From positions 1,652 to 65,651 of the forward strand of contig JAZNKG010000049.1 in assembly GCA_045578445.1 (NCBI GenBank): DNA of 64,000 bases, in the 5' to 3' direction. The translations under genes and the position numbers were made by a program. Below are positions 13,863 through 17,036 of this stretch, one piece after another. The notes beneath the pieces are model-generated. The model saw only the letters and a program-made list of their open reading frames with translations, did not search any database and was not told the origin of the DNA. Within the stretch, counting starts at the first letter, position 1. Every line of letters begins with the position of its first letter. The DNA comes from Alphaproteobacteria bacterium. Its GTDB lineage: Bacteria; Pseudomonadota; Alphaproteobacteria; RF32; CAG-239.

Positions 13863-14570
13863 TTATTTTCTAACATCAAAAATTTCAAAATTTTCTTTCA
13901 AATAAGCATTTAATTCCTCATTTTCCACCAAGGCCAAACACCTATCTTCAGTATTCTCTAAATCCGATTCTACTATACGATACTTTTGCAAATAATACTC
14001 TTTAACCCCCATTTCTTTAAGTTTATTTCCAATCGTATAAATATCCTCTACTGACAAAAATCTTGGATCACAAGTCGTTCTACATTCAAAACTTTTACCC
14101 GATTCGCAAAGCATTTTTAAGCTTTCTAAAACTTTATCTGCATTTGCGATTCCACCTGTAACAACTTTATATCTTTCTTTTTCTAACGGTGCTTTTATAT
14201 CAAAACCGACCCAGTCAACCAACTCTAAAACTTCTTTAAAAAATTCAGGTCTATATCCGCCTGTATGGAGTCCAACAATATATCCCAAGGATTTTACATC
14301 TTTTATAGCATCAACAAGACCTTCTTGCACCAAAGGTTCACCACCAGAGAATACCACAGCATCTAAAATACCTTTTCTCTGCTCTAAAAAATCAATAAAT
14401 TTATGCCAAACAATATTCGTTTCCGCATCTATACTTTGTAATTGCACATTGTGGCAAAACGGACAACGCCATGGACATCCCTGCATAAAAACAACAGCCG
14501 CCATCTTATTTGGAAAATCGACGATACTGAATTTCTCAATACCGCCGATTCTAATTCCTGCCATAAGCAT
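13863..14570 (-). CDS. nrdG: anaerobic ribonucleoside-triphosphate reductase activating protein (radical SAM)
   Basis: CPWRCPFCHN (CxxxCxxC) cluster motif near the N-terminus and position downstream of nrdD; the true start may be the third codon (ATG at 14564). Confidence 0.9.
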   Translation of the reverse strand: MLMAGIRIGGIEKFSIVDFPNKMAAVVFMQGCPWRCPFCHNVQLQSIDAETNIVWHKFIDFLEQRKGILDAVVFSGGEPLVQEGLVDAIKDVKSLGYIVGLHTGGYRPEFFKEVLELVDWVGFDIKAPLEKERYKVVTGGIANADKVLESLKMLCESGKSFECRTTCDPRFLSVEDIYTIGNKLKEMGVKEYYLQKYRIVESDLENTEDRCLALVENEELNAYLKENFEIFDVRK

Positions 14571-14605: not shown

Positions 14606-14851
14606 TTATTCTGCTGCCAAAGCCAAAGACTCTGTTCTGCAAACACACTCACGAGCTTCACAACCATCAATAGCCTTATCTTCACAGAAGCATAGTCTTG
14701 ATTTGAATTCACCCATCTTACCAACATTGTATTCTGTTGTTGGACGGATATAACCCATAACACGGCTATAAATCTCGCAACGTTGTCTTTCAGAATTGTC
14801 TAATTTAACATCTTCAATATTAATAATATTGTTCATATCTCTCCCTTTCAT
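14606..14851 (-). CDS. stand-alone glycyl-radical peptide of class III RNR (NrdD C-terminal segment as a separate ORF)
   Basis: CEIYSRVMGYIRPTTEYNVGKMGEFKSR matches the NrdD glycyl radical signature RVxGY...N.GK..E...R. The likely start is the second ATG (14836), preceded by AAAGGGAGAG. A Cys-rich C-terminal tail follows. Confidence 0.75.
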   Translation of the reverse strand: MKGRDMNNIINIEDVKLDNSERQRCEIYSRVMGYIRPTTEYNVGKMGEFKSRLCFCEDKAIDGCEARECVCRTESLALAAE

Positions 14852-14864
14852 AAACTACTATATA

Positions 14865-16925
14865 TTACACTACTTTTTGCAATTTTGCAAGATTTTTCAA
14901 CTTCTCCGCCTTTTTTTCTTTGTCACAAATTGGGCAAAATTCATGCTCACCAGCAATATATCCATGCTTTGGACAAACAGAAAATGTTGGAGTAATCGTG
15001 ATATAAGGAAGTCTGTAATTTGCTAAAACTTTCTTCACAAAATCACGACAAACTTTAGCAGATGAAATACGTTGATTCATAAATAAGTGAAGCACCGTAC
15101 CACCTGTATATTTAGATTGCAATTTAGCTTGCAAATCTAAAGCTTCAAATGGGTCATCAGTATATCCTACAGGAAGCTGAGAAGAGTTTGTATAGAATGG
15201 AGCATCTTCTGTACCTGCTTGAATAATACCAATATAACGCTTTTTATCTTCTCTAGCAAATCTAGTTGTTGCACCTTCTGCTGGAGTCGCTTCAAGGTTA
15301 TACATATGACCTGTTTCTTCTTGGAACTTAACTAATCTATCACGTATAAAGTCTAAGAACTTCTCAGCAAAAGCCTGTCCCCAAGCATCTGCAATATTGT
15401 GCTCATCATTAGTAAAGTTTCTAATCATTTCATTCATACCGTTAACACCGATAGTAGAGAAGTGATTTCTCAATGTTCCCAAATATCTCTTTGTGAATGG
15501 GAACAAACCATTATCGATTAAACGTTGAATAACTTTTCTCTTAATCTCTAAAGAGGTTCTTGCAATATTCATTAATTCATCAACTCTTGCAAAAAGACCA
15601 GCTTCATTACCTTTATAAACATAACCTAGTCTTGCGCAGTTGATTGTAACCACGCCAACACTACCTGTTTGCTCAGCACTACCAAACAAGCCATTACCAC
15701 GTGCCAATAACTCTCTCAAATCAAGTTGTAAACGACAACACATAGAACGAATTTGACCAGGTTTTAATGATGAATTTAAGAAGTTTTGGAAATAAGGCAA
15801 ACCATATTTTGCAGTCATCTCAAACAACAATTCAGTATTTTCATCTTCCCAAGGAAAATCCCATGTCATATTATATGTAGGAATTGGGAATGTAAAAGGA
15901 CGTCCCATAACATCGCCACCCATCATAACATTGATGTAAGCTTTGTTAATCATAGCCATTTCTTTACCCAAGTCACCATATGTAAAGTCTTGTTCTACAC
16001 CACCAATATATGGTTTTTGGTCACGTAAATCTTCAGGACAAACCCAGTCAAAAGTAAAGTTAGTAAATGGTGTTTGAGAACCCCAACGAGAAGGTACGTT
16101 TAGGTTATAAATTAATTCTTGCATACATTGTTCAACTTGCTCATAAGAAAGATTATCTTTTCTTACATAAGGAGCTAAATAAGTATCAACAGAAGAGAAA
16201 GCTTGAGCACCAGCCCATTCGTTTTGAAGAGTACCCATAAAGTTTACCATTTGGCCAACAGCTGAACTTAAATGTTTTGGAGCGCCAGCTTCAACTTTAC
16301 CAGGAACACCATTAAAACCTTCACGCAATAAGTTCTTCAAAGACCAACCAGCACAATAAGCTGCCAACATACTTAAATCGTGAATATGAACATCACCATT
16401 TCTGTGAGCTTCGCCAACTTCGTGTGGATATACGTGAGATAACCAGTAGTTTGCTGTAACTTTACCAGAAACATTAAGAATTAAACCACCATTTGAATAT
16501 CCTTGGTTAGCATTCTCTTTAATACGCCAGTCAAGATTCTCTAAATATTCATTAACTGAACTTTCTACATCAACAACAGTCTTACCATCACCACGCATTC
16601 TATTTCTTTTATCACGATATAAAATGTATGATTTTGCTGTTCTAAAGTAGTTATCAGAAATTAAAACTTGTTCTACAACATCTTGTATATCTTCAACAGA
16701 AGGAAGAGATTCATCAAATTTATGAGATAAAATCTTCATAACTTTAGCTGTTAACAACCAAGCATCCTCAGCTTCAAATTCAGAAGTAATCTCACCTGCT
16801 CTTAAAATCGCATTATAAATTTTTTCACCATCAAAGTCAACGAGTGTACCGTCTCTTTTTGTTATACTTTTAAACGGCATTTTATATTTTTTTGCCGTCG
16901 GCATTTGCAACTCATTACTAGCCAT
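14865..16925 (-). CDS. nrdD: anaerobic ribonucleoside-triphosphate reductase, large polypeptide lacking the glycyl-radical loop
   Basis: N-terminal ATP-cone (ITKRDGTLVDFDGEKI), catalytic barrel, C-terminal zinc ribbon CPKHGY...CPIC. The ORF stops before any RVxGY motif. Confidence 0.93.
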   Translation of the reverse strand: MASNELQMPTAKKYKMPFKSITKRDGTLVDFDGEKIYNAILRAGEITSEFEAEDAWLLTAKVMKILSHKFDESLPSVEDIQDVVEQVLISDNYFRTAKSYILYRDKRNRMRGDGKTVVDVESSVNEYLENLDWRIKENANQGYSNGGLILNVSGKVTANYWLSHVYPHEVGEAHRNGDVHIHDLSMLAAYCAGWSLKNLLREGFNGVPGKVEAGAPKHLSSAVGQMVNFMGTLQNEWAGAQAFSSVDTYLAPYVRKDNLSYEQVEQCMQELIYNLNVPSRWGSQTPFTNFTFDWVCPEDLRDQKPYIGGVEQDFTYGDLGKEMAMINKAYINVMMGGDVMGRPFTFPIPTYNMTWDFPWEDENTELLFEMTAKYGLPYFQNFLNSSLKPGQIRSMCCRLQLDLRELLARGNGLFGSAEQTGSVGVVTINCARLGYVYKGNEAGLFARVDELMNIARTSLEIKRKVIQRLIDNGLFPFTKRYLGTLRNHFSTIGVNGMNEMIRNFTNDEHNIADAWGQAFAEKFLDFIRDRLVKFQEETGHMYNLEATPAEGATTRFAREDKKRYIGIIQAGTEDAPFYTNSSQLPVGYTDDPFEALDLQAKLQSKYTGGTVLHLFMNQRISSAKVCRDFVKKVLANYRLPYITITPTFSVCPKHGYIAGEHEFCPICDKEKKAEKLKNLAKLQKVV

Positions 16926-16983: not shown

Positions 16984-17036
16984 AAACTACTATATATTGT
17001 GTTAAAGAATTATTAAAAAACTATATCTAGTAGTAA
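16984..17036 (-). promoter_or_regulatory. pair of NrdR-box-like palindromes upstream of nrdD
   Basis: ctactatatattgtgt (16987-17002) and aaactatatctagtag (17018-17033), centres 31 bp apart; box 1 right half matches TaTwGtgt. Confidence 0.55.

Follow-up and report, generated by a model that had tools for sequence, protein, structure and literature searches.

A class III ribonucleotide reductase gene split ahead of its glycyl-radical motif in gut Alphaproteobacteria, Candidate Phyla Radiation bacteria and phages

Must all parts of a class III ribonucleotide reductase (RNR) sit on one chain? In the textbook view they do: covalent linkage of the radical domain, the zinc domain and the catalytic barrel is taken for granted, and it is the premise on which models of NrdG-driven activation are built. 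The question is raised by a locus in a 64,000-nucleotide (nt) stretch of alphaproteobacterial DNA (GCA_045578445.1, contig JAZNKG010000049.1, positions 1,652 to 65,651; 'the window' below means this whole stretch), where three genes follow one another on the minus strand: nrdD-large, encoding 686 amino acids (aa) (14865..16925, stop TAA 14867-14865), a small gene encoding 76 aa (14606..14836, stop TAA 14608-14606), and nrdG, encoding the radical S-adenosylmethionine activase (13863..14570). The RVxGY motif of the glycyl radical is absent from the barrel polypeptide and is carried by the separate 76-aa open reading frame (ORF). A preliminary description of the locus had taken this for a real split, with the radical loop supplied in trans. 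Conservation, selection and phage gene order now lend that proposal strong comparative support, and we consider it likely that the large and small chains are two functional subunits of one class III RNR.

The large ORF, assigned by Pfam and NCBIfam matches, contains the ATP-cone, barrel and zinc ribbon first ascribed to it. The ATP-cone (Pfam PF03477, aa 20-108, E = 1.9e-21) occupies 16602..16868 on the minus strand, as do all features of the operon given below. Residues 137-674 match the Pfam NRDD family (PF13597) at E = 2.9e-177, and NCBIfam NF006126 is matched over positions 3-652 of 684 with 1113 bits, against a cutoff of 548. The finger-loop motif is MCCR, the double-cysteine type (aa 395-398, 15732..15743), and is invariant in our alignment A2; the MGCR and MCCR classes were defined previously, and the MCCR class was said to suit either formate or thioredoxin as reductant (PMC9669993). 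The zinc ribbon, C651-x2-H654-x9-C664-x2-C667 (14925..14975), is likewise invariant in A2 and lies entirely inside the large subunit. Its presence had been described correctly, and the nature of its ligands has to be amended: CPKH-x9-CPIC (CxxHx9CxxC, aa 651-667) is a predicted Cys-His-Cys-Cys metal site, the ligand type with which Thermotoga maritima NrdD binds zinc through CxxxHx6CxxC (PMC4493059). Only a 19-aa Lys/Glu-rich tail, DKEKKAEKLKNLAKLQKVV (14868..14924), follows the ribbon, and the chain ends in KLQKVV before its TAA. The NRDD match covers model positions 1-534 of 562, so that the large ORF does terminate before the glycyl-radical loop, and a HMMER alignment to T. maritima NrdD (4COI) passes the CPVC ligands and stops at residue 618 of the chain, just before the expected position of the radical glycine.

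The small ORF supplies what is missing. It matches the very ends of the same models, NRDD at 531-561 of 562 and NF006126 at 649-681 of 684, so that both models divide between the two ORFs exactly at the break. The small ORF is in the +1 frame relative to the large one, in keeping with the signature first reported on the next ORF in a different frame. It contains RVMGYIRP; the glycyl-radical motif R25-V-M-G28-Y29 (14750..14764) aligns with C-terminal positions in both NRDD and TIGR02487 and is conserved in the small-subunit alignment A1, which makes Gly28 (14755-14753) the predicted radical site. At E <= 1, PF13597 was the sole Pfam match and NrdD models were the sole NCBIfam matches; the Gly_radical family of pyruvate formate-lyase (PFL) type, to which GrcA belongs and whose accession we take to be PF01228, was not matched. 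A search of the Protein Data Bank (PDB) with the small-subunit profile returned nothing meaningful. The peptide consists of an N-terminal extension (aa 1-16), a conserved Cys20, RVMGY (aa 25-29), a Cys-rich tail (14639..14692) and a C-terminal LALAAE, of which AAE is invariant in the alphaproteobacterial small subunits of A1. In the tail, C49, C59, C64 and C66 are conserved and C51 is variable. The tail extends past the end of the Pfam NRDD model and thus is the extra element that it was first said to be; its window type is, however, clade-specific, and other Cys-rich tails occur on some relatives, whether fused or split. The four-Cys tail of the alphaproteobacterial proteins may be a metal site or a redox shuttle, which is speculative.

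Could the break be an error in the assembly? The two ORFs are separated by 28 nt (14837..14864) up to ATG 14836, rather than the 25 nt first counted, and stops in all three frames do occur at the junction as described (TAA 14867, TAG 14860, TAG 14857 and TGA 14850). Every frame of the spacer contains a stop, so that a single insertion or deletion (indel) cannot rebuild a fusion. Independent assemblies of many samples, from NCBI, ENA, JGI and Logan, agree on the structure. A sequencing or assembly artefact in the window has in its favour only the general expectation that a gene found broken in an assembly is often an error, and we give it practically no credence.

We then asked whether relatives share the split. 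A word-indexed search with the small ORF retrieved 26 proteins of 49-95 aa, mostly with 66-90% identity over the aligned region, and their contigs encode a 686-aa NrdD, a 75-77-aa protein and NrdG, in that order. Of the 35 loci in which the junction was surveyed, all from uncultured Alphaproteobacteria associated with the gut, 33 belong to different GTDB species representatives. All 35 are split and none has a continuous ORF; the large ORF stops with TAA in 16 and with TAG in 19. Spacers measure 25, 26, 27, 28, 29, 30 or 43 nt, mostly 27 or 28, and cover all three frame relations. The ribosome-binding site noted at the outset has proved durable: the Shine-Dalgarno sequence GAAAGGGAG (14849-14841 in the window), followed by ATG, is kept in 34 of the 35 loci. 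An in-frame ATG further upstream (14851, MKGRD) is found in some relatives only, which identifies ATG 14836 as the conserved start and gives a protein of 76 aa. A second gut alphaproteobacterial clade, labelled 'Azospirillum sp. 47_25', is very abundant (6240 indexed blocks) and encodes 684-aa and 68-aa proteins followed by NrdG. In one long-read-like assembly of this type (L212:4588-4704) the small gene is called at 38 aa instead of 68, probably an indel error of that assembly.

Both chains are constrained. The small ORF, for which pairwise ratios of nonsynonymous to synonymous substitution rates (dN/dS) are about 0.08-0.11 at dS of about 1.1-1.2, is under purifying selection. The corresponding ratios of nonsynonymous (pN) to synonymous (pS) differences are 0.14 in its N-terminal extension, 0.12 in the core and 0.22 in the Cys-rich tail, so that each part is constrained, and the large subunit is strongly so (pN 0.046, pS 0.65). 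These data bear on the possibility that the locus is a decaying pseudogene, in which a nonsense or frameshift mutation broke nrdD and left an untranslated remnant downstream. The stop does truncate a normally single-chain enzyme just ahead of an essential cofactor site, as such decay might; yet all 35 relatives and, in the wider survey below, 70 of 72 loci have the same break, dN/dS of the small ORF is about 0.1 with saturated synonymous sites, its Shine-Dalgarno sequence and ATG are kept, and so are nrdG and the NrdR-like boxes upstream. We regard decay as very improbable.

The junction equally bears on recoding, in which ribosomes would read through the stop, shift frame or bypass the gap, as they do in T4 gene 60, and would make a single-chain NrdD from the two ORFs. 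The spacer is short and a multiple of 3 in about 16 relatives; in one of these loci (L004) it holds no further in-frame stop, so that readthrough of TAG would fuse the ORFs, and repeats (GTAGTG and GTAGTT) border the stop in the window. The frame relation nevertheless varies among close relatives with spacers of 25-43 nt, all frames in the window are blocked by stops, and landing at the repeated GTA leads into a frame that terminates. The conserved elements, Shine-Dalgarno sequence and ATG, belong to initiation. That the stop, the Shine-Dalgarno sequence and the ATG are kept while the frame drifts points to independent initiation of the small chain, not to frameshifting, readthrough or bypassing. 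Two further observations, described below, also oppose recoding: in Candidate Phyla Radiation (CPR) bacteria the radical motif lies 59-357 nt past the large-ORF stop, and in phages the small gene can precede the large one. Recoding is thus hardly more plausible than decay. Conservation of the split across dozens of species, purifying selection and the unlinking of the genes in phages together exclude, in our view, sequencing error, pseudogene formation and recoding as explanations.

How far does the arrangement extend? With the small-subunit alignment as query we scanned one genome for each GTDB species and obtained 80 loci; nrdD is split in 70 of the 72 that have a complete large gene. The split loci include 33 alphaproteobacterial ones and two from metagenome-assembled genomes (MAGs) of Francisellaceae. 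Outside the Alphaproteobacteria 42 of the 44 loci examined are split, mostly in CPR bacteria (Gracilibacteria, 'Peribacteria' and Absconditabacterales). The order large gene, small gene, nrdG holds in nearly all split genomic loci. CPR large ORFs end in TAA or TAG, so that the split holds whether or not UGA is read as glycine. Such recurrence of one arrangement is far above chance. The 76-aa protein was also compared exhaustively with 1.84 billion representative proteins, which yielded 1262 matches at E <= 0.001; all but one of the best 150 are 48-124 aa long, and the short matches that we inspected start with a Met a few to tens of residues before (E/D)RQxCE(V/I)(Y/W)(S/T)RVMGY. One long match (P0028, 891 aa, 13 matched stretches) was considered as a tandem array of radical motifs and rejected as an unrelated repeat protein without RVMGY. 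The split is therefore a widespread architecture with a phage dimension, not a one-off, and wider than the preliminary description had assumed.

Codon usage in some of the CPR loci deserves a separate remark. In five of them (L053, L057, L060, L063 and L089) nrdD-large has CGA or CGG at five invariant Trp positions, where other CPR loci have TGG, and most of the five also contain in-frame TGA codons. The use of CGA and CGG fits a reassignment of these Arg codons to Trp that we take to be a feature of Absconditabacterales.

Fused relatives locate the break precisely. They comprise two Francisellaceae MAGs with compact junctions (L048 and L082; the junction of L048 reads ...CPICGEDRQLCEIYTRVMGY) and two metagenomic proteins (P0296 and P0334) with low-complexity linkers of 30-45 aa at the break site. 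A natural re-fusion is seen on comparing L215:2851-5124 with L213:2501-4794: a deletion of about 59 nt took away the tail of the large chain, its stop and some of the spacer, and what used to be the Shine-Dalgarno region is now translated within a 757-aa NrdD (P0295). Together these cases put the break in the short stretch that connects the last zinc ligand with the glycine hairpin. Split forms are longer on both sides of it, with a large-chain tail of 19-40 aa and a small-chain N-terminal extension of 10-40 aa; in the window neither the 19-aa tail nor the extension has a counterpart in the compact fused relatives. When 154 large subunits were clustered by barrel identity, split and fused forms were mixed at identities of at least 70%, and a few split forms fell in a second, more distant cluster. 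This mixing argues for repeated fission and fusion at the break site. An origin from a split intein was considered and rejected on size and motifs. Intein fragments together measure about 130 aa or more and end in His-Asn before a +1 Cys, Ser or Thr; at the break in the window there are only 19 + 19 extra residues without a match to an intein or homing-endonuclease domain, and the residues before Cys20 are RQR, not HN.

The operon as a whole appears to be regulated and live. NrdG, placed immediately downstream of the small ORF in the preliminary description, is confirmed there by its match to TIGR02495 (NrdG2, E = 1.4e-60), 35 nt from the small ORF, and almost every genomic relative whose contig reaches that far has nrdG 3' of the small gene. 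Its start is ambiguous, with two ATGs 6 nt apart (14564-14570); the second, at 14564, is probably the start, judging by the spacing to a GAGG Shine-Dalgarno sequence and by the alignments of relatives. Upstream of nrdD are two putative NrdR boxes, ACTACTAGATATAGTT (17019..17034) and ACACAATATATAGTAG (16987..17002), 32 bp apart from centre to centre. A pair of ACWATATNTWGT-like palindromic boxes about 32 bp apart recurs in most of the upstream regions of 29 relatives, and we assign it to NrdR on what we take to be the published consensus of the NrdR box. The conservation of these boxes points to a regulated, live operon.

Phage genomes offer a view of the two genes apart from their bacterial order. 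In IMG/VR, 77 viral NrdD loci of this subfamily were found among the best 80 of 152 matches of a large-subunit scan: 51 are fused, 24 are split and two have the large gene only. In some of the split loci the small gene overlaps or abuts the large one, in others it lies 0.6-2 kb downstream (L155, L156 and L181), and in L137, L171, L172, L200 and L210 it lies upstream of the large gene, an order so variable that no form of co-translational joining can account for it. Large subunits of split systems in L095:6281-9958 and L097:7391-9958, and also in L193, L194 and L197, carry insertions inside the barrel of about 170 aa and about 366 aa that look like inteins or homing-endonuclease insertions.

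When viral sequences were scanned with the small-subunit alignment, 34 loci proved to have a small glycyl-radical ORF of the NrdD type, and in 28 of them neither NrdD-large nor NrdG was found in flanks of up to +/-10 kb. We call these small genes orphans in the sense of unlinked; flanks of at least 5 kb on both sides are available for 13 of the 28, and of at least 9 kb for nine. Two further viral scans, one of them giving the best 80 of 152 matches, did not place a large subunit on the orphan contigs among the matches listed. The 28 ORFs (L090, L091-L093, L098-L105, L108-L110, L112-L116, L118, L124-L128, L132 and L133) encode 40-121 aa. A 119-aa orphan (L090:9809-10168) sits in a DNA-metabolism module beside genes for a Cas4-like exonuclease, a metallophosphoesterase, a Holliday-junction resolvase, a DUF6378 protein, a lysozyme and RNase H, and a similar orphan (P0025, L007:684-971) occurs with a DNA ligase gene on a short phage-like contig. 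The PHROGs database has no family for the small proteins of the window, L090 and L007; the small protein of L092 gave only a weak match to phrog_4132, a family of unknown function, and none of the orphans has a PHROG family with an annotated function. A tblastn search of the deposited phage genomes of INPHARED retrieved only the NrdD of ANMV-1 virus and no cultured-phage example. Near-identical small proteins of 61 aa are encoded by a betaproteobacterial 'Sutterella' MAG (L043:529-663) and by viral L092 (9986-10180); NrdD-large and NrdG were not detected near either gene, which suggests that the 'Sutterella' copy is a prophage-borne orphan.

Do the orphans mean that the small protein mainly serves another enzyme? 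It might be a GrcA-like rescue factor or regulator of a full-length NrdD encoded elsewhere, with a large ORF that is inactive or has some other role. The orphan genes of phages without a nearby large partner and the prophage-like copy in 'Sutterella' would suit such a role, and our check for another NrdD covered the 64-kb window, a scope that also weakens the case for a two-chain enzyme. Within the window no second NrdD piece was found. Moreover, the small gene lies between nrdD-large and nrdG in nearly all genomic loci, and the large subunit is highly constrained and keeps MCCR, the zinc ribbon and the ATP-cone. We consider a rescue role to be unlikely, though less so than any of the explanations by error, decay or recoding.

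If the two chains do form one enzyme, its working can be sketched as follows. One NrdR-regulated operon would express nrdD-large, the small subunit and nrdG, with the small subunit translated separately from its own Shine-Dalgarno sequence and ATG. The small chain would bring the radical-glycine hairpin and the C-terminal segment that follows the hairpin in single-chain NrdD. NrdG with S-adenosylmethionine would then take the C-alpha hydrogen from Gly28, either on the free peptide or on a peptide docked at the zinc-ribbon face. In the next step the hairpin would enter the ten-stranded barrel beside the finger-loop cysteine, and catalysis would proceed as in ordinary NrdD. The large-chain tail and the small-chain N-terminal extension probably tether the two chains to each other. 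Oxygen cuts glycyl-radical enzymes at the radical glycine. In a two-chain enzyme such a cut would cost only a replaceable 8.6-kDa peptide, so that the split enzyme would have a built-in exchangeable radical cofactor. We hypothesize that exchange of the small peptide is a plausible advantage at oxic-anoxic interfaces and that it could explain phage loci with the small gene only.

Several points weigh against a two-chain enzyme. It is known here from genes alone, the genomic examples are all MAGs or metagenomic contigs, and we identified no cultured organism with the split. Published models have the zinc domain and the Gly loop on one chain, and here the two are separate; a contact of the zinc domain with NrdG has been conjectured (PMC4493059). 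Modelling of the two chains as a complex, run in AlphaFold2 as concatenated chains on a shallow alignment (A3), gave an unusable interface, with a mean predicted local distance difference test score (pLDDT) of 63.8, a predicted template modelling score (pTM) of 0.57 and values below 50 for the finger and Gly loops, so that docking is without structural support. In this low-confidence model the large-chain tail forms a helix (pLDDT about 80) and the residues around RVMGY a beta-hairpin. Gene structure, conservation, selection and distribution are thus matters of observation, and for assembly, order of activation, exchange and benefit we offer the conditional account above.

The phage genes invite a bolder idea. 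Stand-alone radical proteins of the NrdD type could form a large unrecognised family of exchangeable cofactor subunits, with phage copies that plug into host enzymes, a proposal to which we give somewhat less than even chances. A phage small protein would then use the large subunit of the host, or a host NrdD that oxygen had cleaved, together with host NrdG, and would raise the supply of deoxynucleoside triphosphates while the infection lasts, which would make it the equivalent for RNR of GrcA and T4 Y06I. This would suggest a new kind of phage auxiliary gene.

The arrangement also matters for annotation. In databases the large chain goes by 'ribonucleoside triphosphate reductase' and the other chain by 'hypothetical protein', which leaves thousands of reductase entries without a cofactor site and their partners without a name. 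We found no description of a split NrdD with a separate radical subunit in the open-access literature, which cannot prove absence, and the architecture appears to be undescribed.

How does the split compare with known systems? Single-chain NrdD with NrdG, as in E. coli, phage T4, T. maritima and P. copri (PDB 1H7A, 4COI/4U3E and 8P23), shares with the window locus the ATP-cone, barrel, MCCR-type finger loop and zinc ribbon, and the RVxGY motif and adjacent nrdG are likewise found at both. It differs in that the hairpin and C-terminal segment are in the window on a separate 76-aa protein, and the window locus has in addition the 19-aa large-chain tail, the small-chain extension of about 16 aa and the Cys-rich tail, none of which belongs to canonical NrdD. 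From gut Alphaproteobacteria to CPR bacteria and phages, the natural split parts the radical loop from the catalytic body, which would make the steps of activation and exchange separable.

A precedent for the gene structure is the split class II RNR NrdJa/NrdJb of Pseudomonas and Thermus phage phiYS40, whose catalytic chain is encoded by two consecutive genes with a short gap and whose downstream piece, NrdJb, carries a C-terminal zinc or Cys-containing module (PMC9669993, PMC3653736). That enzyme uses a B12 cofactor and is broken at another site, and NrdJb has redox and zinc-finger domains, not the radical site. Phages provide further RNR genes in pieces: nrdA of Aeromonas phage Aeh1 is split by mobE, introns or inteins break up the nrdD of T4, Lactococcus phage 949 and Clostridium phage c-st, and phage phiAS4 has a fragmented nrdD, with some such RNR genes in pieces shown to be functional (PMC3653736). 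Mobile introns, inteins or homing endonucleases caused those splits, or else they are one-off fragmentations without an explanation, whereas no mobile element is present at the window locus. Its 28-nt spacer and about 35 aa of extra sequence are too short for an intein, and the break recurs at one conserved position across phyla.

Benzylsuccinate synthase (alpha-beta-gamma) and 4-hydroxyphenylacetate decarboxylase (HpdB/HpdC) resemble the window system in combining a large glycyl-radical enzyme subunit with small Cys-rich subunits. In those two enzymes the large subunit keeps the radical glycine, and the small ones are Fe-S cluster proteins. If it is a redox shuttle, the Cys tail of the alphaproteobacterial small subunit may act like the C-terminal Cys pair of class I and II RNRs.

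Finally, GrcA (YfiD) of E. coli and Y06I of phage T4, the latter of which we take to be a phage-encoded spare part for PFL, are likewise small stand-alone radical-glycine proteins. They are activated by the cognate activase and complete the large enzyme in trans, and an equivalent is conceivable for the small protein of the window. Phage-borne versions exist in both cases, Y06I for PFL and the viral orphans for the NrdD type. The likeness to GrcA that was drawn at the outset thus stands as a functional analogy but not as homology, in that the family of GrcA is the PFL-type Gly_radical one and the match of the small protein is to NRDD (PF13597). GrcA, moreover, backs up an enzyme that has a radical domain of its own, whereas the large chain of the window has none, which would make the small protein obligatory. 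A 2026 review knew spare-part proteins for formate lyases only (PMC13450708), and the split NrdD would extend the spare-part principle beyond them.

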